Source: Alphaproteobacteria bacterium (GTDB taxonomy: Bacteria > Pseudomonadota > Alphaproteobacteria > GCA-2746255). Taken from it: 64,000 nt of DNA. Below the pieces are notes generated by a model, which was not told the DNA's origin, made no database searches, and saw only the letters and a program-made list of their open reading frames with translations. Location: assembly GCA_965249135.1 (NCBI GenBank), contig OZ252220.1, positions 1,792,001 through 1,856,000 of the forward strand, given 5' to 3'. Shown here one piece after another: positions 1,761 through 35,767 of this stretch; the stretch's first letter is position 1; every line of letters starts with the position of its first letter. A program made the position numbers and the translations under genes.

Positions 1761-1797
1761 GCACCCGGCCGTATCATTAAATGCATTGGATGGAGTC

Positions 1798-2568
1798 ATG
1801 AGCAGCGATCAAAAACAATTTGGATACAAGGGCGAGACCAAAGCCACCGACGAACAGATGGCGCATCGGGAGATACTCTATCGCCTATTCCGCGAGCGCC
1901 CGATGCCGGACGACCAGTTGATGATCTGCCTCGGGCTCTTCATGCGAAGTTCGGCCCTGGCAAAAGTCTTGTTCCTGAACGAGCTCTACGAATTGATCGA
2001 GGGAAAGCCAGGGGTCATCGTCGAGTTTGGCACCTGGTGGGGTCAGAATCTGGTGCTGTTCGAGAATCTACGGGCCTTATATGAACCGTTCAATGCCAGC
2101 CGGCGCGTGATTGGGTTCGATACCTTCACCGGTTACCCCAGCGTGTCGGACCAAGACCGCCGCAGCGAGACGATCGTGGAAGGCGGATACAAGGTTTCAG
2201 ACGACTATGAAAGCTACCTCGATGCCTTGCTAGGCTATCACGAGGAAAACAGCGTTCTGCGCAATACCCGCAAGACCGAGCTCGTGAAGGGGGACGTCGC
2301 GAAGACCGCGAAAGACTATTTCAAGAAACACCCTGAACTCGTGATTGCACTCGCCTATTTCGACATGGCGCTTTACGAGCCGTCGAAGGCGGCGTTCCAA
2401 GCCGTCAAGCCGCATCTCATACCTGGCAGCGTACTGATGCTGGATGAGTTCAATTCGCGCGAATATCCCGGGGAAACCATCGCTTTCCGAGAGGTTATGG
2501 GTGACATGAATTTTGAATTCCGCAAGTCGCGCTTCATGACCGATCGCACCATCGCCATCCTGCGCTAA
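1798..2568 (+). CDS. TylF/MycF-like SAM-dependent O-methyltransferase
   Basis: PGVIVEFGTWWG, GFDTFTGYP, LAYFDMALYEP, LMLDE motifs; ATG at 1798 preceded by GGAG. Confidence 0.75.
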   Translation: MSSDQKQFGYKGETKATDEQMAHREILYRLFRERPMPDDQLMICLGLFMRSSALAKVLFLNELYELIEGKPGVIVEFGTWWGQNLVLFENLRALYEPFNASRRVIGFDTFTGYPSVSDQDRRSETIVEGGYKVSDDYESYLDALLGYHEENSVLRNTRKTELVKGDVAKTAKDYFKKHPELVIALAYFDMALYEPSKAAFQAVKPHLIPGSVLMLDEFNSREYPGETIAFREVMGDMNFEFRKSRFMTDRTIAILR

Positions 2569-3308: not shown

Positions 3309-3333
3309 CGGCGCGGGCGACGAGGAAAGCACT

Positions 3334-4236
3334 TTGGCTCATTGGCGCAAACTAGGGCTTCTGATCAAACCCGATCGCTCGCTGTGGTGGTCCCGGACCC
3401 ATGCGATGGTGCCGACGCCACAGCCGCTCGGAAATGGTCTTTTCAAGATCTATTATTCGGGCCGTGACGACGACAACCGATCGCATGTTGGTTGGGCGCT
3501 GGTCGATCTTTCGGGGCCGCCAAAAGTTCTTGAGAACAGTGAACAGCCGGTGTTGTCGCCGGGCGAACTCGGCTGTTTCGACGACAACGGCGTCACGCCG
3601 TCCTGCATTGTCGAAAACGATGATGGCATCTATCTCTATTACCTTGGCTGGAATCCTGGCTCGACGGTACGCGTGCACCTGTTCGGCGGACTGGCGATCA
3701 GCAGAGACAACGGCGAGAGTTTCGAACGCTGGTCTCCCGCCCCAATTCTGGAGCGCTGCCAGAGCGACCCGTTTCTCAATACCGCGCCGTGGGTCATCCG
3801 CGAGAAGGAGCATTGGCGTATCTACTATGTCTCTGGTGTTGGTTGGGAGCATCGTGATCTGCCGCACTATTTAATCAAGACCGGCACGTCGGAGGACGGC
3901 CGCACATGGCAACGCGACGGCACTGTCTGCATCGATTTCGCCAATGAACATGAAGTCGCCCTAGCGCGGCCCTACGTTGTGAAGGAAGACGGCCACTATC
4001 GCATGTGGTTCTCCCATAAGGGTGCGGAATACCGAATGGGGTACGCGGAATCCGACGACGGCGTGACCTGGCGGCGAGACGATGCGGCCTGCGATTTGGG
4101 GCCATCGGCTGACGGCTTTGATTCGGTGATGGTCGAATATGCCTCGGTGGTTCGTCACGGGGGCCAGCGCTTCCTGTTCTACAACGGAAACAACTATGGC
4201 TTTGACGGGATTGGGCTGGCGGCCGAAGAGGCGTGA
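3334..4236 (+). CDS. Five-bladed beta-propeller glycoside hydrolase-like protein (GH32/43/130-like fold)
   Basis: Repeated blades ending in SxDGxxW/F (SRDNGESF, SEDGRTW, SDDGVTW); C-terminal YNGNNYGFDGIGLA; TTG start. Confidence 0.7.
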   Translation: MAHWRKLGLLIKPDRSLWWSRTHAMVPTPQPLGNGLFKIYYSGRDDDNRSHVGWALVDLSGPPKVLENSEQPVLSPGELGCFDDNGVTPSCIVENDDGIYLYYLGWNPGSTVRVHLFGGLAISRDNGESFERWSPAPILERCQSDPFLNTAPWVIREKEHWRIYYVSGVGWEHRDLPHYLIKTGTSEDGRTWQRDGTVCIDFANEHEVALARPYVVKEDGHYRMWFSHKGAEYRMGYAESDDGVTWRRDDAACDLGPSADGFDSVMVEYASVVRHGGQRFLFYNGNNYGFDGIGLAAEEA

Positions 4237-6882: not shown

Positions 6883-7840
6883 ATTTACGAAGCTTCGCGA
6901 GGATCCACTGCTTGTCGAGGGTGTTAGGCATATCGCGGACTTTCTCGAGCCCGAAGATCGCGATCGCGCGATTCGTGAGGCGACCGCCTTCTATGCCGAT
7001 GCGTACGCAAAGGGCCTTTTCTTTACTGAATTGGAAGCACAAGAGCACGGACTGTTGGAGCCAGACGCTCCCGGACGCCAGGTCGAACGAAAGAACAACC
7101 TGATGTATTCGGATATGGGCTGGTTCCTCGAAAGCCGAAGCTTCGAAAAGCTGGTGCGGGGGATATCCGTCTACATCGGGCCGGACATCGACATGTTTCT
7201 TGCCCGGCTGTTGATCGCTGTGCCCCTATGCGACATTCCGAATTACATCCAGCGGCGCTATTTCCCCATGGAGGAGCTGCTGCACGGCTCGATCAATCGC
7301 TTCGTGAAAGACGAGTTTTTGCGCGCCTTCTTTTTCATTCATAATCCATGGCATCAGGATTGGGTCGACATGCCGCGTTCCGACCTGCGATTTATAACCA
7401 CACTTCTACCGATCACAAACCGCCGTGGCGACCAAGCACCGCTTTATATTTTGCCGAAGTCCGCAGCCGTCGAACCGCAGGCAACGCCGATTCCCCATGA
7501 GGAAGACGACGCGACGACGACACTGATGGCTGGGCCCGGCGGCCCACGGCCGTTCGAGAAACGGCGTATGTTGGTCGACCCCGGCGATCTCCTCGCATGG
7601 TCTGCCAGGACTTTCCACAAGGTCGAGCCGAACCTTTCTGCCGAGCCGGCGATCAATCTCCGCTTTAATTTCGCGCCAGCAGGCGCCCGCACCGGCGTAC
7701 GCGACCCGGGAAGCATCCAACGGGTCGGCAGGTCCGCTCTGTCTTATCTGTGTGAGGCAGGCCCGACCGGTCCGGGGACGCCGCCTTTCGTGGCGCATGA
7801 AGAAGATGAATTGGTCGTGACGCGCGAGGGCTATCAGTGA
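6872..7840 (+). CDS. PhyH-like 2OG-Fe(II) dioxygenase
   Basis: PWHQD, PGDLLAW, TFH, N-x-S-x(5)-NLRF. Confidence 0.7.
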   Translation: MLVEFTKLREDPLLVEGVRHIADFLEPEDRDRAIREATAFYADAYAKGLFFTELEAQEHGLLEPDAPGRQVERKNNLMYSDMGWFLESRSFEKLVRGISVYIGPDIDMFLARLLIAVPLCDIPNYIQRRYFPMEELLHGSINRFVKDEFLRAFFFIHNPWHQDWVDMPRSDLRFITTLLPITNRRGDQAPLYILPKSAAVEPQATPIPHEEDDATTTLMAGPGGPRPFEKRRMLVDPGDLLAWSARTFHKVEPNLSAEPAINLRFNFAPAGARTGVRDPGSIQRVGRSALSYLCEAGPTGPGTPPFVAHEEDELVVTREGYQ

Positions 7841-8631
7841 GGCGCGTCGTGCATTTTCTCGATGCGGTACAGCATGCCGAGAGCGCGTTCCTGGGAGATG
7901 ACCTCTGCCGTGGCGTCGAACAGGTCGGTGGCGGCGATGGTCCGCAGACCGCTTCCTTCGCCCGGCCGCGAACCACGGTAAAAGCCTCTTTGCCAAAGCA
8001 ACTCACCCATCGGGTTCACGTCGGTCACGACGCCGGCATCGCGATCGCGGACGAGCATCTCGAAGGTGAGGGTGCGTTCGACGCCGTCGAGGTCGATATG
8101 TTGCCCCGTGAAGGGTTTCTTGTAACGGTAAGGCACGTTCAAGCACTGCTCGACGTAATGGTAGAAAGTTATGCTGTGCTGGTCGTCCAGGTCGAGCACG
8201 GCCACCTTTCCCCCTGCTTGGTGAATCAGGGCGAAGGGACTGTCCGTACCGAAGGCGTCGAGGTTGATCCGTCCCTGCAATTCGTCGGTGCAACGGCCGA
8301 AACAGGAAAAGGAATAGAACGGGTGGCCGGTACGGTTGCGGTCGTAGGCCTTGCGCGCGGTTTCGCTCAGGGCGCCCATACCCGATGGAGATGTTCGCAT
8401 GTCGAAGGGGACGCCGTCGGCAAAGTCATATCGGAAGGCGGGAAACAGCAGGCCACCATCCGGGCCGACCGCGCGAAGGAAAGACTGCAGCAGGTCATTC
8501 GTATCGATGCGATGGCCGAAAGCTCTGTAGCGACGGTAGACGCGGTCCACCCGGCTGTGCAGCATAACTAAGTCGCCGCGCTCGATGCCGCTGTCCCGCC
8601 ATTCGCCTACGAGCTGATCGATCTGATCCAT
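7834..8631 (-). CDS. AAC(3)/YokD-family N-acyltransferase
   Basis: GDLVMLHS, GGLLFPAF, SPSGMGALSE, RTGHPFYSF, FGTDSPF, ITFYHYVE, VPYRYKK; alternative start at 8652. Confidence 0.88.
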   Translation of the reverse strand: MDQIDQLVGEWRDSGIERGDLVMLHSRVDRVYRRYRAFGHRIDTNDLLQSFLRAVGPDGGLLFPAFRYDFADGVPFDMRTSPSGMGALSETARKAYDRNRTGHPFYSFSCFGRCTDELQGRINLDAFGTDSPFALIHQAGGKVAVLDLDDQHSITFYHYVEQCLNVPYRYKKPFTGQHIDLDGVERTLTFEMLVRDRDAGVVTDVNPMGELLWQRGFYRGSRPGEGSGLRTIAATDLFDATAEVISQERALGMLYRIEKMHDAPH

Positions 8632-8705
8632 TCTGCTTTCCCAAAAAAACATGGCCGCACGATGAAGTCGCCACCGAACCTTAGTGATTTCGAGGCTCCT
8701 GCTCC

Positions 8706-10628
8706 ATGATTATCGCATCTCTCTATCCTTGTCCTTACGACCCGCAGATTCGTCACGATCTAAATGCGGCCTTGATTCGGGATGAGGAGATCTATGCTTA
8801 TGAAGAGGACAAGTTCACCGGGATCAAGAACGAGTACACCGTGCAGTTCCCAGAGCGTAGCCTGATGATGGGCTGCAAAGAGCTGGGCGTGGTGCCGCGC
8901 GATGTCGACATATGGGTGCTTCCGACCCCTCGGGAGACGCCGCGCATGGACATCCAGTTCATGTTCTTTGCCACTCTTATTAAGGCTTACGAAGGAACTT
9001 TCGATGCGTTCGAAGCGTGGTACCGCGACCATATCCGTTTCGTCGACCATCATATCTGTCATGCTTCTGCGGCGATTCACACGTCCGGCTTTGAGGAGTG
9101 TGCGTTCGTCAGTCAGGACGGCGGCGGAGACATGGGTGATCCGCGCGACATGATCTTTGGTGAATTTCTTGATGGGGAGATGCACGTTATCGGGCAGCAT
9201 CAGGGGTTGCAAAATATCTGCTCATATCATGCCTTCGCAACCGACGCCTGCGGCTTTAATGGTGGCGAGAATGGGAAGACGTCCGGTTTAGCCTCCTACG
9301 GCACTGTTCAGCCGAAGCTGCTGGAGCACCTGCGTACCCTGATCCGAGAGGATGGCGATGGGCTGACCTTTGACCGTGAGCGCTACAGTCGCACGCCCGT
9401 GAATCTGAGCAAGGTCCGCCCCCAGGAATATGATCGCAACAAGATTTTCCTTCAGGTTCCGTCCGAGACGAACGTCCTGCGCATGGCGCTCGGGTATCTG
9501 CCCCACGATATAGCCGCCACGGGGGAAGCCCTGCTGCAGGAAGCGTTTCTGAACTTTCTCAAGCGGGTCAAGAAACGTGTTTCCAGCCGGAAAATCGTGT
9601 TCAGCGGTGGCCTGTTCCAGAACGTCGCCTTGAACCGCGCAATTGTTGTCTCCGGCCTGTTCGATGAATATTTTTTCCCGATGGCATCGTCGGATGCCGG
9701 GTTGGCGCTTGGCGCTGCGCTTAAGGTCAAACACGATGTCGCGCGGGCAGCCGGGAAAGTGTCGAACTGGCCGGCGAATGGACCGACGCCTGCTTTCATC
9801 GGGCCATCCTTCCCTGATGCGGAAATTGGAGGGCTGCTCGACCGGTTCCAGCTGCACTACACGCGGAGCGACGATCCATCGGAAGCGGCTGCCGAGATGC
9901 TCAGCGACGGCAACGTGATTGGATGGTTCCAGGGGCGCGCGGAACATGGTCCCCGGTCTCTGGGGGCCCGTTCTATCTTGGCCGACCCGAGATCGCTTCA
10001 GTCGAAGCAGCGGGTAAACCAGCGGCTCAAGCGCCGGGATTGGTTCATGCCCTACGCGCCATCGATTCTCGAGGAGGCCTTCGAGGAGTGGTGCGAGCAT
10101 CCGGTATTTTCGCCCTACATGCAGATTGCGTTCACCGTTCCCGAAGGTTTGCGGGACAAGATCCCGGCGGCAGCCCATGTCGATGGTACGTCGCGTATCA
10201 ATGTCGTGCGGCAAGCGGACAACCCGGCTTACTGGCGGCTGATCGACGGTTTCCGGCGTCGGACCGGTTTGCCGCTGGTCCTCAATACCAGCTTCAATCG
10301 GCATGGCATCCCCACGATCTCATCGCCGCGTCAGGCGATCGAGCACCTGATGGAAGGGTGCATGGATAGTCTCGTGATCGGCAATTTTGTAGTGCGCTTC
10401 GCCGACAATCGAATCACGCTAGAGGTGGAAGAGACGTTGATGGCGGAAGAAGATCTGTTGATCAAGGATTGTATCCGCCGCATCCCCAGCGTTGCGCGAA
10501 TGGGAACCGCGAGGGATCTACAGGACTATCTCGACCGCCTGTCTCGATTGGTCGGCGGCCCGGTTGAAGTCGACGGCGATATGGTCACGATAGCCGATCG
10601 TGGTTCAATCCGTATTGGGACGGCATAG
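8706..10628 (+). CDS. Carbamoyltransferase (NodU/CmcH/TobZ family)
   Basis: HD, HHICHA, DGGGD, SGGLFQN, SDAGLALGAA, GWFQGRAEHGPRSLGARS, HVDGTSR, LNTSFNRHG. Confidence 0.93.
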   Translation: MIIASLYPCPYDPQIRHDLNAALIRDEEIYAYEEDKFTGIKNEYTVQFPERSLMMGCKELGVVPRDVDIWVLPTPRETPRMDIQFMFFATLIKAYEGTFDAFEAWYRDHIRFVDHHICHASAAIHTSGFEECAFVSQDGGGDMGDPRDMIFGEFLDGEMHVIGQHQGLQNICSYHAFATDACGFNGGENGKTSGLASYGTVQPKLLEHLRTLIREDGDGLTFDRERYSRTPVNLSKVRPQEYDRNKIFLQVPSETNVLRMALGYLPHDIAATGEALLQEAFLNFLKRVKKRVSSRKIVFSGGLFQNVALNRAIVVSGLFDEYFFPMASSDAGLALGAALKVKHDVARAAGKVSNWPANGPTPAFIGPSFPDAEIGGLLDRFQLHYTRSDDPSEAAAEMLSDGNVIGWFQGRAEHGPRSLGARSILADPRSLQSKQRVNQRLKRRDWFMPYAPSILEEAFEEWCEHPVFSPYMQIAFTVPEGLRDKIPAAAHVDGTSRINVVRQADNPAYWRLIDGFRRRTGLPLVLNTSFNRHGIPTISSPRQAIEHLMEGCMDSLVIGNFVVRFADNRITLEVEETLMAEEDLLIKDCIRRIPSVARMGTARDLQDYLDRLSRLVGGPVEVDGDMVTIADRGSIRIGTA

Positions 10629-10631
10629 GCG

Positions 10632-11933
10632 GTGCCGACGATGAAAATTACTTGCATCGCCCATGCTTGCCTTCTGATCGAGGCAGGTGGATTGAAGATC
10701 CTCACCGATCCATGGATAGCGGGCCCATCTTGGGGCGGTAATTTGTGGGTCTATCCTCCGGCTAAGGTAACACCGGAAGATTTTGATGATGTCGATGTCA
10801 TCTATTTCTCACATGCTCACGAAGACCATTTTCAGCGCGAATGCGTTGAGCGCCTGCCCCAGGCGACCAAGGAAAGGGCGAAGGTTCTGATCCCTGAGTT
10901 CGGCATGCCCTATTTCGAAAAGGCGGTACGGAAGGCCGGTTTCGCAAACGTCACCGTGATGCAGCACGAGGACGTGGCCGACTTTGGCGACGGCGTGCGG
11001 ATGCACATGCAGCTTAACGATCGGGGCGATCATGATTCGTCTCTCGTGATCGAGGCGGACCGCTCGACCTTGTTCCTGCAGACCGATAACATTTTTTCTC
11101 AGGAAGAAGCGAAACGTCTCGGCCAAAAATTCGATGTGGATCTGCTGTTTGCGATCACCGTTCTCACCGGCATCTATCCGGCATTCTGCGACATGCCGGC
11201 GGATCGGATGATCGAGCATGCGAGGCAGAAACGCGAATGCTCGATCGCCTATGCATTAGATGTGACGCGCGCCCTCGGCGCAAAGGCGGTCGTCCCCTAC
11301 GCATCCGACCTGTGCTATCTAGACCATCTTTTTCACATCAACGCGTTGCATCACCACGACAAGGCGGGATTTCTGGCCAGGGTCGTGAGCGAATTGCCGG
11401 CAACCGAGGGCATCCGTATGACGCCCGGCGACTTGCTGGAGCTGAAAGGCGGTCATATCGTGGATCGTTCGTTGGCGGACGCGGAGGATCGAGTCGAAAA
11501 ACTCGCTACCTTCGCCATCGAGATGCAGGAGCGCTACGATCGTTCCTGGCGGGAAGAGCATTCCAGGACGACGCCGCCTTTTGCAACACTGGTGGAGGCG
11601 TTGTCCAACGCCCTGTCGAACGCCGTAGGGAATTGGACACACGCGCCCTATCGGGTGCTTTGGCGGGTGCAGGATGAGGATGGAAGCCGGCGCGCGATCG
11701 GGCATGTGGCGGGCTCGGCGGCGCAGGCGGCGGACGACGCGTGGCCGTATGACCTCAGGATCGATGTCCCCGCCTTTCGCTTGCGGCGGTTGGCGCATGG
11801 CGATTACCCGATGGGGTTTCTGACGCTTCAGAATGGCGGGATACGTTTCCACCGGCATGTGGACGGGCTGACCGCGCCGGAACGGGCTTACTGGCAGGCA
11901 CTTCTGCGCCTTCGTATTCCGTTGCAGGTGTGA
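10632..11933 (+). CDS. Metallo-beta-lactamase-fold protein, CMP-Neu5Ac hydroxylase (CMAH)/UlaG-like, lacking a Rieske domain
   Basis: ITCIAHAC, TDPWIAGP, SHAHEDH, DSSLVI, VPYAS. Confidence 0.75.
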   Translation: MPTMKITCIAHACLLIEAGGLKILTDPWIAGPSWGGNLWVYPPAKVTPEDFDDVDVIYFSHAHEDHFQRECVERLPQATKERAKVLIPEFGMPYFEKAVRKAGFANVTVMQHEDVADFGDGVRMHMQLNDRGDHDSSLVIEADRSTLFLQTDNIFSQEEAKRLGQKFDVDLLFAITVLTGIYPAFCDMPADRMIEHARQKRECSIAYALDVTRALGAKAVVPYASDLCYLDHLFHINALHHHDKAGFLARVVSELPATEGIRMTPGDLLELKGGHIVDRSLADAEDRVEKLATFAIEMQERYDRSWREEHSRTTPPFATLVEALSNALSNAVGNWTHAPYRVLWRVQDEDGSRRAIGHVAGSAAQAADDAWPYDLRIDVPAFRLRRLAHGDYPMGFLTLQNGGIRFHRHVDGLTAPERAYWQALLRLRIPLQV

Positions 11934-11949: not shown

Positions 11950-13605
11950 GTGCCCAATGGCAATTTCATTTCGAACTGGTACCGACAGCGCGCGAGAGCG
12001 CGGGCGCGGGCGTTTCTCCGGACGCATCGCGCCATTTTACGGGCCACGCTCGACCTGGAAAATCATCGCCTCGCCGGATTGCTGGAGGATGCCGGGCCAC
12101 CCGTACCGGACGACGCATTGAATGACTTCGCACCAGAGGCATACCGCGAGGCAGCGAAGACGTGTTTGCGGCAGCGCTGTCTGACCATGAATTTCAGCTT
12201 CCTGCTCGCCGAAACGGGGAAACATTTGGTCGTCCCCGGGATGCCACTGGTGATGCCTGTCTCGAAGCGCTGGCGCGCGCATCTTCGTGGGCAGGGGCTC
12301 GCCATTTCCGCACAGTCGCGGGTGCGCTTCGCCATCGTCGTTCTTGACGGCTTGATCGCAGGTCTTCGCGCCACACGTCTGTTGATTCTCGCGCAAAGGC
12401 GCGGCTGGCAGGCCGTTCCGCCGGCACCCGGGCATCACGTATTCGTAGGCGTTGGTCCGGGCAACCTGCCGGACCCGTCCGGACGGGAAGAAAGGCGCAA
12501 TCTTCACAACTGGTACCAAGCCTATTACGGGCTCGAGAAAGACTACCCGTTCGTAGCGGAGAATCGCGGAATTGATGAGCCGCAATGGTACGGCACAAAA
12601 GGCGTGATGACGCCGCGGCAGTTTCCGCCGCTCGATCCTGCAAACCGCCGGAAATTTATGCGCGCGGCGATTGGTCTGATGAGGCAAGCGGTTACCGGGG
12701 TGCTCTGCGGGCGATGGTGGCACGCCATTCTGCTGGCGGACGCGGTGGAACTGGCCTATTTCCGGGCGATCCCCGCCAATTGTCTGGCGCACCGCTACGT
12801 GTTCCATGCAGGGAACTGTCTGGTCAGGCCATTGTGGACCTATGATGCAGAGGCACGCGGCTGTGCCGTCGTCAATGCCTTCTATTCCGCGAATTTCATA
12901 ACATTCACGCCAAATCCCAATATTCAGCCGGCGCGAACGCTTGCCTTGTCGGCCATGTCCTGGCCGGAGATGATCTGCCTCGACAGGGAATCGCGGAACG
13001 CCCTGATCGATTACGGTCTCTCGGCTGATACGGTGACGATCAGCGATATCCCCATCGATTTCTATGACGATGGCTTCCCATTGCCGGTAGTCGACGGCCC
13101 AGTAGTCGTGCTGTTCGATGTCACGCCATACCGGTCCTATTTCAAAGCATCGCGCGGCGTTCATAACGCCTATTACACGGCCGAGACCTGGATGCGCTTT
13201 GTCGACGACGTTGTCGAGAGCGCCAAGCGGCACGGGTGGACCGTTGCCCTGAAAGCCAAGCGGCAGAAGGACCAATTCAATGCGCCAGCCTACCAGCGTC
13301 ACGTCGAGCGGCTGGCGGTGGATCCGAATGTCGTGCTCATGGAGGCTGGCATCGGCGCATCGCGGGCGATGACAATCGCCGATGCGGTCATATCGATGCC
13401 CTTCACGTCGCCGTCTCTGATCGCGGCGCGACAAGGCCGTCCAAGCGTCTTCTACGATCCCGGTGGAAAACTTTCCCATTACAAATCTTTGGCGCGCGGG
13501 TTGCCAATGTTGGCAAACCAGTCGGAACTCGATGCTTGGTTCCGGTCGCTCGACACCAAGGCCACGGACCCAGAACCGTGTTCAACCTCCACGCTTCAGG
13601 TCTGA
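11950..13605 (+). CDS. Polysaccharide biosynthesis PFTS-motif protein
   Basis: C-terminal ADAVISMPFTSPSLIA...SVFYDP; LFDVTP; located in a glycan locus. Confidence 0.8.
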   Translation: MPNGNFISNWYRQRARARARAFLRTHRAILRATLDLENHRLAGLLEDAGPPVPDDALNDFAPEAYREAAKTCLRQRCLTMNFSFLLAETGKHLVVPGMPLVMPVSKRWRAHLRGQGLAISAQSRVRFAIVVLDGLIAGLRATRLLILAQRRGWQAVPPAPGHHVFVGVGPGNLPDPSGREERRNLHNWYQAYYGLEKDYPFVAENRGIDEPQWYGTKGVMTPRQFPPLDPANRRKFMRAAIGLMRQAVTGVLCGRWWHAILLADAVELAYFRAIPANCLAHRYVFHAGNCLVRPLWTYDAEARGCAVVNAFYSANFITFTPNPNIQPARTLALSAMSWPEMICLDRESRNALIDYGLSADTVTISDIPIDFYDDGFPLPVVDGPVVVLFDVTPYRSYFKASRGVHNAYYTAETWMRFVDDVVESAKRHGWTVALKAKRQKDQFNAPAYQRHVERLAVDPNVVLMEAGIGASRAMTIADAVISMPFTSPSLIAARQGRPSVFYDPGGKLSHYKSLARGLPMLANQSELDAWFRSLDTKATDPEPCSTSTLQV

Positions 13606-13617: not shown

Positions 13618-14871
13618 GTGGCGAGGACGTTGGCTGTTGTCGCGCTTTCGGATTCGAGCCGCGTTGATCTCGAGTGGATCCTTCCGTTGATCGACGAACT
13701 GATCGAAGCGGGCGACAGGATAGAGGTATTCGATTTCACGCCCATGGACAGAAACGACCGCTCGTCCTACGGGATGCGGTCACTGCGTCATGTCCTTGGA
13801 CGCTGGCCGCGACGATATGCCGATCTGGAGTCAATCCCTTCGGTCGTTGCCCGATTTCTCGACCGGCTGAGGGCAAGCGCAAGTGTTGCGGTGGCCCGGA
13901 TCGGTGCGTTCTACTTCAGCCCTAAATCACCGCTGGAACGTATTGTTCCATTATCCAAATGGCGAAAGCGTACCCGGGTACGGGCTCTGGAACGACTCTT
14001 CGACGACTGTAGCGGATTGTTCGTCGGGTTGCGCGCGGAGGAATGGGTGGATGGTACGGGTGAGTCGGAGTTGATAGAGGCTGCGCGCGCTCGCGGTGTC
14101 CCAGTCATCGGTTATCCTCCGGTGGTCGACCATGAAATCCCGCATCGGCAACTGATGGCATGCGACATTGCATTGGCCAACACGCCACAGCAAGCGGCCG
14201 CGTGGGCAAAGATTTCAAGCGCGCACATTGTCTCGGTCACGCCGCCGATTTTCACGCAGCGCTGGCTGACCCGGCTTGAAGCCATTCAACGTGCCATGCT
14301 GGGCGACTGCGACGTGCCGAGCGGGTGCAACTCGGCCCTGGTCATCCTCAAGAACGATAATTCCATCGTTTGGACTGGTCTTGATTTCCACGAGACGGCG
14401 AGCGAAATGCTGACGGTACTGCTCGATGCCAGCATGCATCTCTTGATCAAGCCGCATCCACGGCAAAGTCCGGAGGCGTTGAAGCGACTGCTCGGTCCGA
14501 TCGATCGCACGCGGTACACCCTTATCGACGGTCCTTTGGCGTATTGGGCGCGACGGGCCGATCTCGTGGTGTCGTTGTTCTCCGGCGGTGTTCTGGATTG
14601 TCTCGCCGTGGGTAGGGTCGCCGTTCTTTATTGGCCGATGACGGCGTCCTATCTGGAGAAGATCAAGGAAGGTGAGGTAACGGATGTCTATATTCGGAAC
14701 CGCAGCGGCGGCGCGCTTAGCACCAAATATCGTGATTTCTGTTTCGAGGTAACCGACCTCGTTTTCAAGCTCCCTCCGATAACCGATATGGCATCGCGGC
14801 TGGCTACATTTCGGAAGCATTACCCTGCGGCGGAAAATTGCCGTGCGATACGCGAGTTGATTGCGCGCTGA
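13618..14871 (+). CDS. Hypothetical GT-B-fold protein (putative glycosyltransferase)
   Basis: LLIKPHPRQ and ADLVVSLFSGGVLDCLAVG resemble a GT-B C-terminal domain. Confidence 0.5.
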   Translation: MARTLAVVALSDSSRVDLEWILPLIDELIEAGDRIEVFDFTPMDRNDRSSYGMRSLRHVLGRWPRRYADLESIPSVVARFLDRLRASASVAVARIGAFYFSPKSPLERIVPLSKWRKRTRVRALERLFDDCSGLFVGLRAEEWVDGTGESELIEAARARGVPVIGYPPVVDHEIPHRQLMACDIALANTPQQAAAWAKISSAHIVSVTPPIFTQRWLTRLEAIQRAMLGDCDVPSGCNSALVILKNDNSIVWTGLDFHETASEMLTVLLDASMHLLIKPHPRQSPEALKRLLGPIDRTRYTLIDGPLAYWARRADLVVSLFSGGVLDCLAVGRVAVLYWPMTASYLEKIKEGEVTDVYIRNRSGGALSTKYRDFCFEVTDLVFKLPPITDMASRLATFRKHYPAAENCRAIRELIAR

Positions 14872-14889: not shown

Positions 14890-15894
14890 ATGCGGGAATG
14901 TCATGACATGAGACTGGGGATTGTCGGGGCAGGGGCGGTGGCGCTGGACCATGCCGCGGTCGCCGAAGCGCTAGGTGTCAGGATCGTTGCGGCAAGCACG
15001 CTAAGTATGCAGTCGCCACGCTGGGCCGCGTTCAAGATCGCACATCCCGACTGCAAATTCGAGCCGGACCCGGCCGCCATGGCTAAGCGCAGCGACGTCG
15101 ATGCGATCGTTCTCTGCCTGCCTTGGAAAACCCAAGTCGAGTGGCTGGAGTGGGGACTTTCGATGCCGAAGCCGGTGCTGATCGAAAAGCCGATAGCTCT
15201 TACAGAACAAGCGCTTAGTGTCGGACTCGCCCGCAACCGCGCTACCTTGTCGGGGAAACTGGTAGGGTACAACCGGCGTTACTATCGAACCGTTGCCCGG
15301 CTTGCTCAACGTCTCGAGCAAGGCGGCCTACGGGCGGCGGATATCACGATTTCGGAAGATATCGCACGGCTCGTACAGCGACGCGGAAACAATATGCCGC
15401 TTTTTTCGATGGAATATTCGGGTTGTCACTTGATCGATCTCGCGGTCCATTTGTTCGGTCGGCTCTCCGTGGTGCATATGACATGCTATCCGGAAGAACA
15501 CGACGGGGTCTCCTTCGAGGATTACAATGGATTGCTCGAAACGCAATCGGGAGTTCCCGTGGCATTCTTCAACAACGCAAACGACCCGAGCCGCGTCGGC
15601 ATTCGCTGTAAGTTCGATGACGGATCCTTCTGGCACCTCACGCCGTCCGAGATACTGACGGTTTACCAAGGCTACGACATCATCGAACGCAACCCCGATT
15701 GCCAAGTCCGGCAGTATTCGCCCCGTGAGACGGAACGGATGATCGAAGACGCGACGTATCGGCCTGGATTCTTGGCACAGATGCGCGCCTTCCTGACGGG
15801 GGACGTTGGGCCGGGCTGCACGCCGGAAATGGCATTAGGGCCGCTTGAACTCATCGGCGCCATCAAGAGCCAGGCCAAGGACATTCGCGCATGA
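14890..15894 (+). CDS. Gfo/Idh/MocA family oxidoreductase
   Basis: LGIVGAGAVA, VLIEKP, GYNRRY, HLID. Confidence 0.85.
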   Translation: MRECHDMRLGIVGAGAVALDHAAVAEALGVRIVAASTLSMQSPRWAAFKIAHPDCKFEPDPAAMAKRSDVDAIVLCLPWKTQVEWLEWGLSMPKPVLIEKPIALTEQALSVGLARNRATLSGKLVGYNRRYYRTVARLAQRLEQGGLRAADITISEDIARLVQRRGNNMPLFSMEYSGCHLIDLAVHLFGRLSVVHMTCYPEEHDGVSFEDYNGLLETQSGVPVAFFNNANDPSRVGIRCKFDDGSFWHLTPSEILTVYQGYDIIERNPDCQVRQYSPRETERMIEDATYRPGFLAQMRAFLTGDVGPGCTPEMALGPLELIGAIKSQAKDIRA

Positions 15895-16997
15895 AGACAC
15901 GTGGATCAAATTCCAAGGAAAAGACGATCAACGTCGCACCGCCAATCGCAACCTTGCGCGAGGCGCGCGAACGGGCCCGTTCGCTGGTGCCGCCGCAGGC
16001 ATGGGACTGGTTGGAATGCGGCACGGAGCGCGAGTGGACACTCGCCGCCAACGGCGAAGCCTATCAGCGGTATTTTCTGCAACAGCGGGTCTTGCGCGAT
16101 GTCACAAACGTCGCGACGGGTCGCCGTTTTCTTGGTACGAAGCTTCCGATCCCCTTGATCGGCGCGCCGCTCGGTGGGATGACACAATATCACCAGGACG
16201 GCGAGATCGCGCTTGCCCAGGGCGGTCACCTCGCCTCGACAATCACGTCAATCAGCACCATGTCGCGGTTGCGGATCGAGGAAATCAGGGAAGCCGCACC
16301 CAAGGCGGCCTTGATCTATCAGGTCTATTTCCAGGGGCCGGACGAATGGCTTGAAGAGGAAGTGGCGCGCGCCAAAGCCGTCGGGGTCAAGGCGCTGTGC
16401 CTTTGCGGCGATGCGCCGGTTCGGACCGTGCGCTATCGCGATCGGGAGAACCGGTATGACGCGCGCAGATTCGGTCGTCGGACCAATGCACCGCCGCCCA
16501 GCCACGCGCTAGGCGCCCGTGCGACGTGGGACTACGTGGCATGGTTCAAGCGGCAGGTCGATGTGCCTGTGATCGTAAAAGGCATCGTCTGTGCGGCCGA
16601 TGCAGAGCTGGCGCTGGGGCATGGCGCCGACATGATCTGGGTGAGTAACCACGGGGGCAGAGTGCTCGACTCGGGGCTCGCGTCGCTCGACGTCCTGCCG
16701 GAAATCCGGGCTGCGGTCGGCAAGAAGGCCACGATCATATTCGATGGCGGTATTCGGACCGGTTCCGATATCCTGAAGGCGCTGGCCCTCGGCGCGGATG
16801 TCGTTGCCGCCGGACGCCCGGTCGTCTATGGCCTTGCGGTGGACGGGGCGGCTGGTGTCGCGCGGGTCCTTGAGTTGTTCGCCGAGGAATTCCGATCTGC
16901 GATGGCAATGTGCGGGGTTACTCGCCTTGAGCGGATCGGGCCGGACATCCTGCGGACGCGGCCAGACGCCGAAACGCTGTTAAATCTTTTGCGCTGA
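15891..16997 (+). CDS. FMN-dependent alpha-hydroxy acid oxidase/dehydrogenase
   Basis: PVIVKGI, VSNHGGR, FDGGIRTGSDILKALALGA. Confidence 0.93.
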   Translation: MKTRGSNSKEKTINVAPPIATLREARERARSLVPPQAWDWLECGTEREWTLAANGEAYQRYFLQQRVLRDVTNVATGRRFLGTKLPIPLIGAPLGGMTQYHQDGEIALAQGGHLASTITSISTMSRLRIEEIREAAPKAALIYQVYFQGPDEWLEEEVARAKAVGVKALCLCGDAPVRTVRYRDRENRYDARRFGRRTNAPPPSHALGARATWDYVAWFKRQVDVPVIVKGIVCAADAELALGHGADMIWVSNHGGRVLDSGLASLDVLPEIRAAVGKKATIIFDGGIRTGSDILKALALGADVVAAGRPVVYGLAVDGAAGVARVLELFAEEFRSAMAMCGVTRLERIGPDILRTRPDAETLLNLLR

Positions 16998-18373
16998 TGC
17001 CATCGATGGATAAGGGCTCGATACCCGCGGCCGAGACGCGAAGTTACGTCATCGAGGGGAAAAGTGACCTCGAGGCGGGGCGGATCGCATTCGGCATTGC
17101 CAATATGGCCGGTAACAAGGCCTATCGGTATGCGACGGAACGTGCCGGTGGCGATGCGGATGGTGCGATTCTTCGCCGATTCCAGGGTCGTTTTCGTTGG
17201 TATCGCGAAAGCTGGCGCGGTCTGCCCGCGCAGGCCGTGGCGGAAAAGCGGTGGGGTCAGAAATTTGAGGCGCTTGGCTACCCACCGCTCTGCGTTGACG
17301 TGGAAAGTGCGGCGGTGTGTGATTTAGCCTGCCCATTTTGTTTCCGGCAGTGGATCGCGACGCCGGACAAGATCATCGATTTTGAGTTGTTCCGCCGTAT
17401 CGTTGATCAATGCGCCACGCTGGGCGTGCCGTCGATGAAGCTCAATTGGCGTGGCGAGCCACTGCTTCATCCACAATTGCCAGAGATGATCGATCTTGCC
17501 AAGCGTGCCGGTATCCTCGAGGTGATCATCAATACCAATGCGACGACGCTTGACGAAGAGAAGTCGCGTGCGCTGATCGATGCCGGCCTCGACATGATAA
17601 TCTATTCCTTCGACGGCGGCAGTAAGGAAACCTATGAACGGATGCGACCGGGGCGGTTCAAGCCGAACAGCTTTGATGCCGTCTACGATAACATACGTCG
17701 GTTCGCAGACATCCGGTCGCAGATGGGCGCCGTCTTTCCCCGTACGCGCATTCAGATGGTCTTGACCGAGGATACCTTTCCCGAGAGGGACGCCTTCTTC
17801 CATTTGTTCGAGGACTGCGTCGACGATGCGTCGGTCAAGGCTTACACTGAGCGCGGCGGCAAGATCAGCGAGCTCGATGCCGAAACCCGGGAACGCCTGT
17901 CTGACGAAATTGCGCGCCTTAAGCTTCCTGACGATACGCCAGTGTGGCGCGATCTCAGTGGCACTCTCCATGTGTCGACGGGCCGTCTGCCCTGCGAGCA
18001 GCCGTTTCAGCGGCTGCTAGTCACCTACGATGGCCGTGTCAGCATGTGTTGTTATGACTGGGGCAGCCAGTATCCGGTCGGCTATGTTGATACCCAGGCG
18101 ATCGAAACCGGCGAGCGGGAATACGAGGAAATTTTCGAGAAAGTCGCCGCAGGCGCAAAAGGGTTCGAGTTGATGACCGGCGCCGTAATGCCGGAGAAGA
18201 TGAACGAGCCTGAGCCGGTCGTCCGGACGTTGCAGGAGATCTGGCACGGCGCCGATATCACGCATGTGCGTCGAAAGCATGTTTGCGGCGAAGGCGAGAC
18301 GGTGAGCGCGTGCCGCCGCTGCACCTTCCGCGAAACCTATGCCTGGCAGGCGATCGGTGACGGAACGTCTTGA
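16997..18373 (+). CDS. Radical SAM protein with SPASM/twitch domain
   Basis: CDLACPFC, WRGEPLLHP, NTNA, SFDGG, CEQPF...DGRVSMCCYD...CRRC. Confidence 0.92.
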   Translation: MPSMDKGSIPAAETRSYVIEGKSDLEAGRIAFGIANMAGNKAYRYATERAGGDADGAILRRFQGRFRWYRESWRGLPAQAVAEKRWGQKFEALGYPPLCVDVESAAVCDLACPFCFRQWIATPDKIIDFELFRRIVDQCATLGVPSMKLNWRGEPLLHPQLPEMIDLAKRAGILEVIINTNATTLDEEKSRALIDAGLDMIIYSFDGGSKETYERMRPGRFKPNSFDAVYDNIRRFADIRSQMGAVFPRTRIQMVLTEDTFPERDAFFHLFEDCVDDASVKAYTERGGKISELDAETRERLSDEIARLKLPDDTPVWRDLSGTLHVSTGRLPCEQPFQRLLVTYDGRVSMCCYDWGSQYPVGYVDTQAIETGEREYEEIFEKVAAGAKGFELMTGAVMPEKMNEPEPVVRTLQEIWHGADITHVRRKHVCGEGETVSACRRCTFRETYAWQAIGDGTS

Positions 18374-19244
18374 TGGGCTGTCGTGGCGTCGAGCTGCGTG
18401 TAGATGGCGTATGTCTGGAATAGCAGCGGCATTCAAGCGCCATCCGGGGCTTACGCTTGCGCTGGTTGCCCATACACTCGGCCGCAACCTCCGCCTGAAA
18501 CTGTTCGAGCGGGCGCTCCGTTCGAAAGTCTGGCGCGACTCTGTCCGCTCGGTGCGGCGGGAAGGCTACGCCATCGTCCCGGGCTACCTGACAGGTGAAG
18601 AGATCGCGTTCCTGCAAGACGTGTGTGACAGGTCGGCAGAGGGAATCGATGGCCTGAACGGCGATCCGTATCTCATCGCTATGGCGCCGGGATCGCTGCG
18701 GTTGCGCCATATGGAAAGCCGCCATCCGGAGATGGATTATTTCCGGCGGCACATTAAGATCGCCATACTGTCGGCCTGTCTGCACGGCCGGCTGCATTGG
18801 CCGTCGGTGCAGTACTCGGCGACCTATGATGGCCGGAGCAATCCGAGTTTTGTTTCGGGGCGGGCCGAGGTGCCTTTCGGTGGGGCCTGTCATCTGGATC
18901 AGTGGCACCATCAGTTAAAAGCGATCTTCCTGCTGGATGACATGAGCCAGGAGAACGGACCCCTGATGCTCTACCCGGGGACATGGCGGCCCCAATGGTC
19001 CGGGATCGACGTCTACCGGCTCAAGAAGTGGAACAAGCTGCATGACGGTTCACCACCAGCCGATCTGTCGCACCTCCGCGACGATAATTTCCCCCCGGAA
19101 GTCTGCGCGACGGTGGAACAACGGGGCGCGCCGTTTCCGATGACGGGAAAAGCAGGCGACCTTGTCCTGCTCGACACGCGAACGCTGCATTTTGCAAGAA
19201 AAATCGAGACGGGGCGGCGGCGGTTGCTATGGTTTTATTTCTGA
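18339..19244 (+). CDS. PhyH-like 2OG-Fe(II) dioxygenase (start uncertain)
   Basis: EGYAIVPG, CHLD, ENGPL..YPGT, GKAGDLVLLDTRTLH, RR. Confidence 0.78.
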   Translation: MPGRRSVTERLDGLSWRRAACRWRMSGIAAAFKRHPGLTLALVAHTLGRNLRLKLFERALRSKVWRDSVRSVRREGYAIVPGYLTGEEIAFLQDVCDRSAEGIDGLNGDPYLIAMAPGSLRLRHMESRHPEMDYFRRHIKIAILSACLHGRLHWPSVQYSATYDGRSNPSFVSGRAEVPFGGACHLDQWHHQLKAIFLLDDMSQENGPLMLYPGTWRPQWSGIDVYRLKKWNKLHDGSPPADLSHLRDDNFPPEVCATVEQRGAPFPMTGKAGDLVLLDTRTLHFARKIETGRRRLLWFYF

Positions 19245-26048: not shown

Positions 26049-26082
26049 TTTTCTCCAACGGATTAAAGAGGGGTTAGACACG

Positions 26083-26772
26083 ATGCTGTTCATCGCGGAA
26101 ATCGGCATGAACCATAATGGCAATTTCGGGTTGCTTTACGAATTGATACGGCGGGCGAAAGACGCCGACGCCGATATCGCCAAATTTCAACTCGGCTGGC
26201 GGTGGGAGGGGGGCGAGATCAACCAGATCACGCCGGACATCATCCGCCAGATCATCAAGATCTCAGATTACTACGGCATCGAGCCGATGTTCTCGCTGAT
26301 CACGCGCGAAGCCTTCGAGATGGCGAAGCCGTTTAACTTTAACCGCTATAAAGTTGCCTCGCGTACCGTGAAGGATGACATTGATCTGGTTCGCGACATC
26401 GTCGCCGAGGGCAGGGAAACTTTCGTCTCGCTGGGCATGTGGGAAGGCAAGGGCATGCCGTTGGAAGCAGGCGCGGACAAGGTGCGCTATCTGTTCTGCA
26501 AGTCGCTCTATCCGACCGCGCCGTGGGAGATCACCGACCTTCCAAAGGACTTCGATACCTCGCCTTACGATGGCTACAGCGACCACACCGTCGGGATTGA
26601 AACAGCCTTGCTGGCCATTGCCCGCGGCGCTCGCGTTATCGAGAAGCACTTCACGCTGGACAAGTCGGACACGACCATCCGTGACCACGCCTTGAGTGCG
26701 ACGCCCGACGAGTTTGGCCAACTCGTTTCGCTGGGGCGGGGCATCCGCCGGTGTCTGGATGTCGGCCAATAG
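26083..26772 (+). CDS. Short NeuB-type synthase lacking the SAF domain
   Basis: [40 protein letters not shown]; GAGGGG RBS upstream of ATG 26083. Confidence 0.88.
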
Positions 26773-33405: not shown

Positions 33406-34377
33406 ATGAACGTCTTCATTTCCACGTTACCTTTTGGTGAGATCGACAAAGGGCCGCTCGAGTTGCTGGTCGAGGTCGGCGCTAAGGTCCTCGTCAACCC
33501 GACCGGTCGGAAGCTGAGGGATGGCGAAATAGACGCTTTCCTGGGCGACACGGATATTCTGATTGCCGGGACCGAGAATCTCGACGCTGCGAGCCTGTCA
33601 CAGGCCTCTCGTCTCAAGCAGATCAGTCGCGTCGGTATCGGCGTGGATTCCGTCGACTTGAATGCAGCGAGAACGCTCGGGATCGAAGTCACGAACACGC
33701 CCGATGGACCGACGGAGGCGGTGATCGACTTGGCGATCGGCCTGATGGTCTCGCTTCTGCGCAGAGTTCCAGAGGCTGATCGTTGTATCCGCAACGGTCA
33801 GTGGGATCGTCTGATGGGACGTCGGCTCGGGACATGCACGGTCGGCGTCATCGGAGTGGGACGGATTGGCGGTGGCCTAATCCGCCACCTTCGTCGCGCG
33901 TATCCCGGAATATATATCCTAGCCAACGATCCCGAGCCCAAGCCTGAGTTCGAAAACCTGTCAGATGTCGAATGGGTCGCCAAGTCCGAGATCCTAGAAC
34001 GCGCCGATGTTGTCACACTGCACGTTCCGCTGACCGACTTGACTCGGAACATGATCGATGGCGCGGCGTTGGCCAAGCTTCGACCCGACGCCGTTTTAAT
34101 CAATCTCGCCCGCGGCGGGATCATCGACGAGCAGGCGCTTTACGAATGTTTGAAGGCCGGAGAGATACAAGCGGCTGCGATCGACGTGTTTACCAAGGAG
34201 CCCTATCGCGGCGCGCTGGCCGAACTCGGCAACTGTCTTCTGACTGCCCACCAGGGGCCTTTGTCCGAGGACTGCCGCGCCTTGATGGAACGCCAGGCGG
34301 TGGAGGAAGCCGTTCGCTTCATCCGGGGTGAGCGCCGCCACAACGTGGTCGTGCCCGGCCGCCGAGCGGAGCCGTGA
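33406..34377 (+). CDS. D-isomer-specific 2-hydroxyacid dehydrogenase (SerA-like, no ACT domain)
   Basis: SRVGIGVDSVD, GVIGVGRIG, LHVPLT, INLARG, IDVF..EP. Confidence 0.9.
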   Translation: MNVFISTLPFGEIDKGPLELLVEVGAKVLVNPTGRKLRDGEIDAFLGDTDILIAGTENLDAASLSQASRLKQISRVGIGVDSVDLNAARTLGIEVTNTPDGPTEAVIDLAIGLMVSLLRRVPEADRCIRNGQWDRLMGRRLGTCTVGVIGVGRIGGGLIRHLRRAYPGIYILANDPEPKPEFENLSDVEWVAKSEILERADVVTLHVPLTDLTRNMIDGAALAKLRPDAVLINLARGGIIDEQALYECLKAGEIQAAAIDVFTKEPYRGALAELGNCLLTAHQGPLSEDCRALMERQAVEEAVRFIRGERRHNVVVPGRRAEP

Positions 34378-34447
34378 CCCGCACGCACGTGGACTCCCAT
34401 CCGCAGGAAAAGTAATTACGACGGAATGGCAACACACGGATCGTATT

Positions 34448-35767
34448 TTGAAATCTGACTCCATCGGTATCGAGCTTCATCGCGTGGCCGAAAAGCTATT
34501 CCCGATTTGCCGCAGCATTACGGGTGACGGTGTGCGGCAGACGATCGATGTGCTGAGCCGTAATTTCACGCCGTTCGAAGTTGCCGAAGTGCCCTCTGGG
34601 ACACGGTGCTTCGACTGGACTGTCCCCGATGAGTGGAACATACGTGGCGCGCGCCTGATCGCCCCGGACGGATCTACGGTCGCCGACTTCCAGGAAAACA
34701 ATTTGCACGTGGTCGGCTATTCCGAGCCGGTCGATGTCGAGATTGGACTCGAGGAGCTGCAGCAACACTTGCATTCGCTCGATGCGCTCCCGGAGGCGAT
34801 TCCCCATGTGACCAGCTACTACCGAAGGAATTGGGGATTCTGCCTACCTCACGGACAGCGGGAGCAATTACCGAAGGGTACGTATCGTGCCGTGATCGAC
34901 AGCACGTTAGCTCCGGGATCGATGACCATCGGGGAGTATGTGCTTCCAGGTGAGAGCGCCGACGAGGTCCTGGTGTCGTCCTACGTATGCCATCCGTCCA
35001 TGGCGAATAACGAACTGTCGGGACCGATCGTCGCAAGCGCCATCGGCCGCTGGCTCGGCGAGGAAAAACGGCGATTCACTTACCGCATCGCGCTCTTCCC
35101 GGAAACGGTCGGTTCGATCGTCTATCTCAGCCGCAGGCTGGAGCACCTGAAGCAACGACTGATTGCCGGGTTTCACCTCTCCTGCATCGGCGACGAGCGG
35201 GCCTATTCATTTATTGCAACACCGAGCACCGATACATTTGCCGACCGCGTGGCGCGGCATGTCTACAAGTCAATAGATCCGGGTGCTATCGAATACGATT
35301 TCCTCGATCGTGGCAGCGACGAACGGCAGTTTTGCGCACCCAATGTCGATTTGCCGGTCGTCACATTGATGCGGTCACGGTTCGGCAGCTTTCCAGAATA
35401 TCACACCTCACTTGACGATCTGACTCTGGTTACGCCCGCAGGGCTGGAAGGTGGGTTCTTGGCGGTAAAGCGCTGCATCGAGACCATCGAAGCCGCTTGT
35501 GTGCCGCGGGCCACGCGAACGGGAGAACCGCAGCTGCGGAACTACGAGCTTCGTCCTGATACGTCGACCCGTGATCTCGGCGACTTTTTTCGCCTCGTCA
35601 GCGATGTCCTTGCCTTTGCCGATGGACGCAGGGACTTGGTCGAGCTGAGCGATCGCATCCGGCGGCCTGCCTGGGAGGTGGTTTCGGTCATTGAGCACCT
35701 GGAATCCCATGGCCTCATTGAGCGCTTGCCGGGTACCCGGTCGGGCGGTGGTGTGGATGGTGGCTGA
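34448..35767 (+). CDS. DUF4910/DUF2172 aminopeptidase-like protein with C-terminal HTH (Cj1295-like); start uncertain
   Basis: LFPICRSITGDGVR, DWTVPDEWNI, TSYY, CHPSMANNELSGP, PETVGS, RGSDERQF, EYHTSLDD. Confidence 0.88.
   Translation: MKSDSIGIELHRVAEKLFPICRSITGDGVRQTIDVLSRNFTPFEVAEVPSGTRCFDWTVPDEWNIRGARLIAPDGSTVADFQENNLHVVGYSEPVDVEIGLEELQQHLHSLDALPEAIPHVTSYYRRNWGFCLPHGQREQLPKGTYRAVIDSTLAPGSMTIGEYVLPGESADEVLVSSYVCHPSMANNELSGPIVASAIGRWLGEEKRRFTYRIALFPETVGSIVYLSRRLEHLKQRLIAGFHLSCIGDERAYSFIATPSTDTFADRVARHVYKSIDPGAIEYDFLDRGSDERQFCAPNVDLPVVTLMRSRFGSFPEYHTSLDDLTLVTPAGLEGGFLAVKRCIETIEAACVPRATRTGEPQLRNYELRPDTSTRDLGDFFRLVSDVLAFADGRRDLVELSDRIRRPAWEVVSVIEHLESHGLIERLPGTRSGGGVDGG

Follow-up and report, generated by a model that had tools for sequence, protein, structure and literature searches.

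A Rieske-less relative of the NamH and CMAH catalytic cores as a candidate N-acyl hydroxylase in a bacterial nonulosonic-acid locus

Introduction

N-glycolyl sugars are known from animal N-glycolylneuraminic acid (Neu5Gc; CMAH) and from actinobacterial peptidoglycan (NamH). Both enzymes hydroxylate an N-acetyl group on a nucleotide sugar, as described in the accessible text of PMC13574776 and PMC4819959. Here we describe a gene at positions 10632-11933 of a 64,000-nt stretch of alphaproteobacterial DNA (lineage GCA-2746255; assembly GCA_965249135.1, contig OZ252220.1, positions 1,792,001-1,856,000, forward strand), hereafter called the window. The encoded protein, hereafter the target, has the core of these enzymes and no Rieske domain. 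We favour, with modest confidence, the reading that the target is an O2-dependent N-acyl hydroxylase whose new hydroxyl would then be carbamoylated in this bacterium.

The Rieske domain of CMAH is N-terminal. The first-pass annotation of this DNA considered only an N-terminal Rieske motif; for NamH this detail is wrong, because the Rieske domain of NamH lies at the C-terminus according to the available part of PMC13574776. CMAH has been recognised as an MBL-fold (metallo-β-lactamase-fold) oxygenase without a structure (PMC4819959, accessible text). CMAH homologues of about 60 prokaryotes were listed by BLAST in PMC5767959, whose available text gives no function for them. For Tannerella forsythia UB4, N-glycolyl legionaminic acid was suggested in 2017 only from a 350-Da mass, and the accessible text of that paper called the sugar "not yet described in bacteria" (PMC5378307). 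This agrees with the earlier remark on our DNA that the occurrence of N-glycolyl nonulosonates in bacteria is poorly established.

CmlA and FrsH are diiron β-hydroxylases that share with the target an MBL fold and the lack of a Rieske domain. They have an N-terminal domain of about 250 residues, and their matches begin at residue 250-273, whereas the MBL domain of the target starts at residue 4. They act on carrier-bound amino acids; the target instead has an SCP2-like domain after the MBL domain. Both CmlA and FrsH need an external reductant. Hydrolases of the UPF0173/UlaG type (TM1162, Igni18 and UlaG) are like the target in matching Pfam Lactamase_B_3 and give the highest fold Z-scores, but they have another ligand set and no SCP2-like domain, and the target scores far below their family cut-off.

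Results and Discussion

Target gene and domain architecture

The target and its two domains are located as follows.

10632..11933, + strand: target open reading frame (ORF), a single open frame, GTG to stop, with 433 codons
10641..11480, + strand: MBL-fold domain, residue 4 to about 283, from Pfam Lactamase_B_3/B_2 and the AlphaFold2 (AF2) model
11484..11930, + strand: C-terminal SCP2-like domain, residues 285-433; separate domain model with pLDDT 92.7

The true start is probably ATG 10641 (430 aa) and not GTG 10632, because the orthologues begin at MKIT and the sequence AGGCGG sits 8 nt ahead of ATG 10641. The frame is a real gene, since about 50 full-length homologues with 31-89% identity were found in a protein search and 61 further orthologue loci were recovered. 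All motif strings quoted in the first-pass annotation occur in this frame, namely KITCIAHAC (residues 5-13), TDPWIAGP (25-32), GNLW (36-39), SHAHEDH (60-66), DSSLVI (135-140) and VPYAS (221-225).

Only MBL-superfamily models of Pfam matched the target: Lactamase_B_3 (PF13483; E 4.8e-10, 40.1 bits vs gathering threshold 24) and Lactamase_B_2 (E 1.9e-6). A Rieske domain gave no Pfam match in the target, and the CxH...CxxH pattern is missing across the whole protein, so the absence noted earlier for the N-terminus extends to the full length. There is no room for a further N-terminal domain, because the carbamoyltransferase gene upstream stops at 10626-10628.

The AF2 model was built on 31 homologues (pLDDT 92.2, pTM 0.90). 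The MBL domain (model residues 1-285) was compared with solved structures by VIA-align, which gave Z-scores of 24.1 for TM1162, 23.9 for Igni18, 23.5 for UlaG, 23.1 for CmlA, 22.4 for NAPE-PLD and 21.7 for FrsH. Foldseek returned the same mixture of hydrolases and oxygenases. Telling the two kinds apart by fold failed, the range of 21.7-24.1 covering both.

The C-terminal domain matched sterol carrier (SCP2) proteins in Foldseek, starting at E 2.4e-6; a weaker match, at 5e-4, was to the C-terminal domain of the alkylsulfatase SdsA1. VIA-align gave Z 10.9 with the N-domain of the methyltransferase SpnK and 8.0-8.6 with SCP2 proteins. The Pfam model SCP2_Rv3818 (PF25451) had no match in the target, and the C-terminal profile of the target family showed no significant similarity to the SCP2_Rv3818 region (E 0.2). 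As modelled, the target is an MBL domain plus an SCP2-like domain, that is, the NamH catalytic core minus the Rieske domain.

Relation to NamH and CMAH

A full HMMER scan of 1.84 billion representatives yielded 2066 proteins at E ≤ 1e-3. The best 150 of these matches were mostly Rieske-less and about 410-480 aa long. Among 199 family proteins, 7 have a C-terminal Rieske pattern and 2 have an N-terminal Rieske domain (CMAH architecture). Three of the C-terminal type were checked by Pfam and consist of MBL, SCP2_Rv3818 and Rieske domains, which is the NamH architecture.

The hhalign comparison of the target family profile with NamH-type proteins gave a probability of 100 and an E-value of 9.8e-39 over 333 columns. 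The corresponding comparison with bacterial proteins carrying an N-terminal Rieske domain and an MBL domain (P0162 and P0199, which are not animal CMAH) gave 3e-31 over 258 columns. These profiles, the shared putative ligands and the NamH-like core of MBL and SCP2-like domains uphold the resemblance to the CMAH/NamH catalytic domain proposed in the first-pass annotation.

NamH (Rv3818) has a homologous MBL domain, termed "UlaG-like", followed by an SCP2-like domain, as the target has in its model. Both proteins share HxHxDH, Asp135, Asp152 and the missing motif-5 His, and both belong to cell-surface sugar pathways that handle N-acetyl amino sugars. NamH goes on into its C-terminal Rieske domain, whereas the target ends after the SCP2-like domain. 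The context of NamH is peptidoglycan in Actinomycetota; that of the target is a nonulosonic-acid locus in marine Proteobacteria, Cyanobacteria and Thaumarchaeota. CMAH and the target share a homologous MBL domain, linked through the bacterial proteins with an N-terminal Rieske domain, and a nine-carbon sugar context. They differ in that CMAH has the N-terminal Rieske domain, whereas the first MBL strand of the target begins at residue 4 and the target falls outside the clade with N-terminal Rieske domains.

A tree of 137 MBL domains was calculated with SH-aLRT support. The target clade has 28 rows with support 100 and stands apart from the other 109 rows. The 109 include one clade of proteins with a C-terminal Rieske domain (support 95) and a second of proteins with an N-terminal one (support 99), each nested among Rieske-less proteins. 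The separate clade of the target rules it out as an orthologue of NamH or CMAH.

The Rieske domain is attached to this MBL core in several forms. Proteins of 619-652 aa with an N-terminal Rieske domain, an MBL domain and an extra C-terminal DUF1858 are encoded at L160:607-2562, L161:5656-7512 and L166:3077-4933. NamH-type proteins with a C-terminal Rieske domain lie on viral contigs of 52-181 kb (L084:8001-9446 and L088:8001-9533, the latter also matching SCP2_Rv3818), and a third viral one, L086:8001-9389, was recognised as this form by pattern only. At locus L171 a gene for a distant member of the family (1760-2905) is directly followed by a separate gene for a 119-aa Rieske protein (3034-3390; PF00355, E 5.8e-15), and this pair is a split form of the NamH/CMAH architecture. 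That the Rieske domain has been joined in three independent ways, as N-terminal fusion, C-terminal fusion and adjacent gene, argues for redox chemistry by the MBL core itself. No longer fused forms of the target family (759-2165 aa) were found, which is weak evidence, and no fusion to an N-acyltransferase occurred among the matches of the homologue searches. One protein, P0097, is fused to a methyltransferase and is the sole such case among the proteins checked by Pfam.

Putative metal ligands

The putative ligand positions are listed below.

10812..10829, + strand: HxHxDH motif (H61, H63, D65, H66), putative metal ligands, invariant in the family alignment
11034..11036, + strand: Asp135, in the range of MBL motif 3, an Asp found superfamily-wide; putative ligand by alignment only
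11085..11087, + strand: Asp152 (QTD), the canonical motif-4 bridging Asp
11295..11309, + strand: P222-Y223-A224-S-D226, at the motif-5 position, which has no His; D226 occurs only in the target clade

In the alignment of 199 proteins to the family profile, HxHxDH is present in every row covering those columns. HxHxDH, Asp135, Asp152 and P-[YF]-A are kept in Rieske-bearing and Rieske-less members alike, and a motif-5 His occurs in none of the 199. Canonical MBL hydrolases carry His at motifs 3 and 5. At these positions the target has Asp135 and P-Y-A-S-D, which are invariant in the orthologues, and no canonical His. The putative ligands are invariant in orthologues down to about 30% identity and would comprise three His and at least three Asp. 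The accessible text of PMC7785958 describes the ligand set of Fe-dependent MBL oxidoreductases as more acidic than that of hydrolases. The MBL domain of the target probably carries iron.

Comparison with solved oxygenases and hydrolases

In a sequence search of the PDB with the target family, FrsH (8a90) was the best solved relative, with E 4.6e-11 over positions 2-118, and CmlA gave 3.8e-5 over 4-220. Two solved hydrolases, TM1162 (6.5e-7) and NAPE-PLD (3.8e-6), outrank CmlA. With the NamH-type profile, FrsH (1.3e-12) and CmlA (3.5e-12) rank first. FrsH thus outranks every hydrolase for both profiles, and CmlA does so only for the NamH-type profile.

The NCBIfam model PRK00685 of the UPF0173 hydrolases scored 29.7 bits on the target vs a cut-off of 144, over residues 4-68 only. 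The first-pass annotation had raised the possibility that the target groups with UlaG-type lactonases. By sequence it does not, given this score; by fold it ties with them.

Gene neighbourhood of the target and its orthologues

The annotation of the surroundings as a sialic-acid-type locus proved right. A very large nonulosonic-acid locus spans 46-45276 of the window. Besides numerous tailoring enzymes, it encodes three NeuB-family proteins and has no fewer than three cytidylyltransferase genes or domains. The genes that bear on the target are as follows.

7834..8652, − strand: AAC(3)-like N-acyltransferase (Pfam Antibiotic_NAT, PF02522, 5.3e-25)
8706..10628, + strand: NodU/CmcH-family O-carbamoyltransferase (Pfam Carbam_trans_C 5.3e-61, Carbam_trans_N 9.7e-21)
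34328..35767, + strand: DUF4910/DUF2172/wHTH protein (aminopeptidase-like), 22 kb from the target in the window
1786..2568, + strand: TylF-type methyltransferase, about 8 kb from the target; homologues flank the target in carbamoyltransferase-free loci

The carbamoyltransferase gene ends 3 nt before the target ORF and probably shares its operon; its score with the NodU model (3.4e-31) is below the cut-off. The N-acyltransferase gene diverges from the carbamoyltransferase-target pair just upstream.

We compared 62 loci, comprising the window, 9 genome loci and 52 metagenome loci, with full-length orthologues of 26-78% identity. These loci share ancestry, and their counts should not be read as independent events. 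In 24 of the 62, both flanks extend for 3 kb or more (full-flank loci). The counts give the loci in which each neighbour was found.

AAC(3)-like N-acyltransferase (PF02522): within 3 kb, 46/62; within 200 nt, 31/62; full-flank loci, 23/24
DUF4910 aminopeptidase-like protein: within 3 kb, 28/62; within 200 nt, 7/62; full-flank loci, 16/24
NodU/CmcH-type carbamoyltransferase: within 3 kb, 19/62; within 200 nt, 9/62; full-flank loci, 11/24
TylF or Methyltransf_24 methyltransferase: within 3 kb, 18/62; within 200 nt, 11/62; full-flank loci, 9/24
Carbamoyltransferase or methyltransferase: within 3 kb, 37/62; full-flank loci, 20/24
Carbamoyltransferase and methyltransferase together: within 3 kb, 0/62; within 200 nt, 0/62; full-flank loci, 0/24

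The N-acyltransferase is the most conserved partner of the target. At 60% identity, 15 of the 17 clusters contain it, and the other two are singletons on contigs shorter than 2.4 kb. This conserved neighbour fits an N-acyl target. The carbamoyltransferase and the TylF/Methyltransf_24 methyltransferase look like interchangeable capping modules beside the target. The capping types have been swapped between close relatives, because both occur within the two largest clusters at 60% identity. Short flanks are found in 21 of the 25 loci that have neither capping enzyme.

Proposed function

The favoured pathway would have three steps. The AAC(3)-like N-acyltransferase would first acylate an amino sugar of the nonulosonic-acid pathway, giving an N-acetyl or another N-acyl derivative. 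The target would then act like NamH and CMAH and hydroxylate the acyl methyl group, in the simplest case converting N-acetyl to N-glycolyl. Last, the primary alcohol so formed would be O-carbamoylated in this bacterium by the NodU/CmcH-type enzyme, or O-methylated by a TylF-type methyltransferase in other lineages. Candidate stages for the action of the target are the NDP-hexose, the CMP-nonulosonate and the acyl donor. A donor encoded elsewhere would supply the electrons, and the same must hold for CmlA and FrsH. Whereas homology, architecture, ligand conservation and gene neighbourhood are observed, the iron, the O2 dependence, the substrate, the stage of action, the electron donor and the sequence of reactions are inferred. 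The cephamycin pathway is a precedent for this order of events, with hydroxylation of a methyl group followed by carbamoylation of the alcohol by a CmcH-type enzyme.

The flagellin glycosylation island of Campylobacter jejuni offers a second parallel. In the accessible text of PMC3068675, the N-acyl group of pseudaminic acid is tailored by an aminopeptidase-like protein and an N-acetyltransferase and then O-methylated in the Cj1295/Cj1296-7 system; Cj1295 is required for the O-methylated hydroxy-acyl group, and Cj1296/7 adjoins Cj1295 in the same locus. The orthologue loci of the target likewise hold DUF4910, the AAC(3)-like transferase and O-methyltransferases.

It is possible, though short of probable, that marine plankton decorate their surfaces with N-(O-carbamoyl)glycolyl or N-(O-methyl)glycolyl nonulosonic acids by means of such a three-enzyme module. 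Its members would be the AAC(3)-like N-acyltransferase, the Rieske-less MBL/SCP2 hydroxylase and an O-carbamoyltransferase or O-methyltransferase. Its hosts would be SAR11, ammonia-oxidising archaea, Synechococcus and marine Rhodospirillales. The new element is a Rieske-less NamH/CMAH core that is tightly coupled, in the nonulosonic-acid loci of marine plankton, with an N-acyltransferase and an O-capping enzyme.

If this is true, the module would be the first route to N-glycolyl-type sialic-acid-like sugars in bacteria and archaea, served by a diiron-type hydroxylase without the Rieske domain on which NamH and CMAH depend. Some of the most abundant marine microbes would then make carbamoylated or methylated N-glycolyl-type surface sugars, which could bear on phage recognition and grazing. 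A hydroxylase of the Rieske-less clade would also show how the NamH/CMAH core obtains electrons without a fused Rieske domain. If the target proves to be a hydrolase, it would be an ordinary accessory enzyme.

Evaluation of alternative functions

Several results weigh against an N-acyl hydroxylase. The target belongs to a deep separate clade with 25-30% identity to the Rieske clades, and its function may have diverged. Its MBL domain, as modelled, ties with hydrolases by fold, and the sequence match to FrsH is confined to roughly the first 118 residues. A PDB search with just the second half of the MBL domain gave no relevant match, so residue-level mapping onto the CmlA ligands, Glu377 included, failed. 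The roles of HxHxDH, Asp135 and Asp152 as ligands are putative and derive from alignment. A Rieske protein, a ferredoxin and a reductase were absent from the window and the 61 other orthologue loci in a pattern search, which may miss atypical Rieske or ferredoxin clusters; the genome has four Rieske matches elsewhere, the nearest about 38 kb past the end of the window. Hydroxylations could instead be the work of PhyH-type Fe/2-oxoglutarate (Fe/2OG) dioxygenases, which the same loci encode. A literature search confined to papers proper, supplements aside, turned up no assay or other biochemical work on any Rieske-less member.

The same lack of a redox partner near the target speaks for a metal-dependent MBL hydrolase working with the N-acyltransferase. 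Such an enzyme might be a de-N-acetylase, exposing an amine that is then re-acylated, a thioesterase for acyl-CoA or acyl carriers, or an NDP-/CMP-sugar phosphodiesterase replacing a PseG-type step; the window has only a weak PseG-like match, at 39587-41350. The highest fold similarities are to TM1162, Igni18, UlaG and NAPE-PLD, public annotations call the homologues "MBL fold metallo-hydrolase" or "UlaG", and more than 90% of the listed superfamily members have no Rieske domain. We nevertheless regard a hydrolase as unlikely. The profile of the target family is much nearer to NamH-type and CMAH-type proteins than to the solved hydrolases (6.5e-7 or weaker), the UPF0173 score is far too low, and the motif-5 His is missing, with Asp in place of the motif-3 His of the canonical set. 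Other candidate deacylases, DUF4910 and PIG-L, are already present in the loci. A hydrolase also leaves the strict either/or pairing with the O-capping enzymes unexplained.

All oxygenase evidence for the target also applies to an iron oxygenase acting on something other than the N-acetyl methyl group. The substrate of such an enzyme could be a longer N-acyl chain (propionyl to lactoyl or glyceroyl), a sugar carbon or an acyl-CoA donor. SCP2 folds classically bind acyl-CoA and lipids, and if the donor were hydroxylated before transfer, the SCP2-like domain would bind the acyl thioester. The Cj1295-Cj1296/7 region of Campylobacter is tied to di-O-methylglyceroyl and not to acetyl in the available text of PMC3068675. 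We consider this reading rather improbable. Among the relatives, only NamH and CMAH have been characterised, and both hydroxylate the N-acetyl group of a nucleotide sugar (PMC13574776 and PMC4819959). NamH has an SCP2-like domain too, yet uses UDP-MurNAc, and no acyl carrier protein or acyl-activating gene adjoins the target in the window. The very tight adjacency to the N-acyltransferase would also suit a non-catalytic or scaffold protein that retains the fold and assists this enzyme. We think this very improbable, as the invariance of the putative ligands down to such low identity argues for a working metal site.

Distribution

The gene is sporadic. It was found in 3 of 401 genomes of the same class, all from the window's own genus, and G113, one of three other genomes of this genus, is without it at E ≤ 1e-40. 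The content of the locus therefore varies within the genus. Base composition gave no signal of a foreign island, the GC content being 0.56-0.61 throughout the window. Named hosts of orthologues are Pelagibacteraceae, Nitrosarchaeum, Synechococcaceae, Rhodospirillales and other Alphaproteobacteria. These are oxic marine groups, which we count in favour of an O2-dependent enzyme. A Thalassospira also carries a homologue, at 59% identity. The scan of viral contigs found no orthologue of the target clade, only distant relatives with 22-29% identity and one 47% match over 66 residues.

Distant Rieske-less relatives with 22-30% identity, in the MBL domain only, occur in loci L010-L080 (Acidobacteriota, Bacteroidota and others). 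They often adjoin AsnB-like amidotransferases and GT4 glycosyltransferases rather than NeuB genes, which suggests a different sugar substrate.

Other genes of the nonulosonic-acid locus

The locus also encodes methyltransferases, PhyH-type dioxygenases, a radical SAM/SPASM enzyme, an FMN-dependent dehydrogenase, an MBOAT protein, a sulfotransferase, glycosyltransferases and an ABC exporter. Beyond it lie the housekeeping ccm, aconitase and yidC genes. Directly downstream of the target is the following gene.

11950..13605, + strand: PFTS-motif polysaccharide biosynthesis protein (TIGR04417, E 6.5e-34, above the cut-off)

It is followed by a gene for a 417-aa protein at 13618-14871, for which no family match was found. 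Both proteins are conserved in the orthologue locus L001. The next block, 14890-19244, encodes a GFO/IDH oxidoreductase, the FMN-dependent α-hydroxyacid dehydrogenase (E 1.6e-101), the radical SAM/SPASM enzyme and a PhyH-type dioxygenase. This block keeps its gene order in L001 (73-86% identity) and is an unusual tailoring set for a sugar locus.

The region 24639-26772 includes a 469-aa GT2 ORF with a weak cytidylyltransferase-like stretch, which overlaps a 287-aa ORF by about 140 nt. The 287-aa ORF matches only positions 53-235 of the NeuB model and may be a truncated or mis-started NeuB paralogue. At 22791-24575 a single ORF of 594 aa encodes a NeuB-type synthase, with SAF domain, fused to a cytidylyltransferase domain, and this fusion is conserved in L001.

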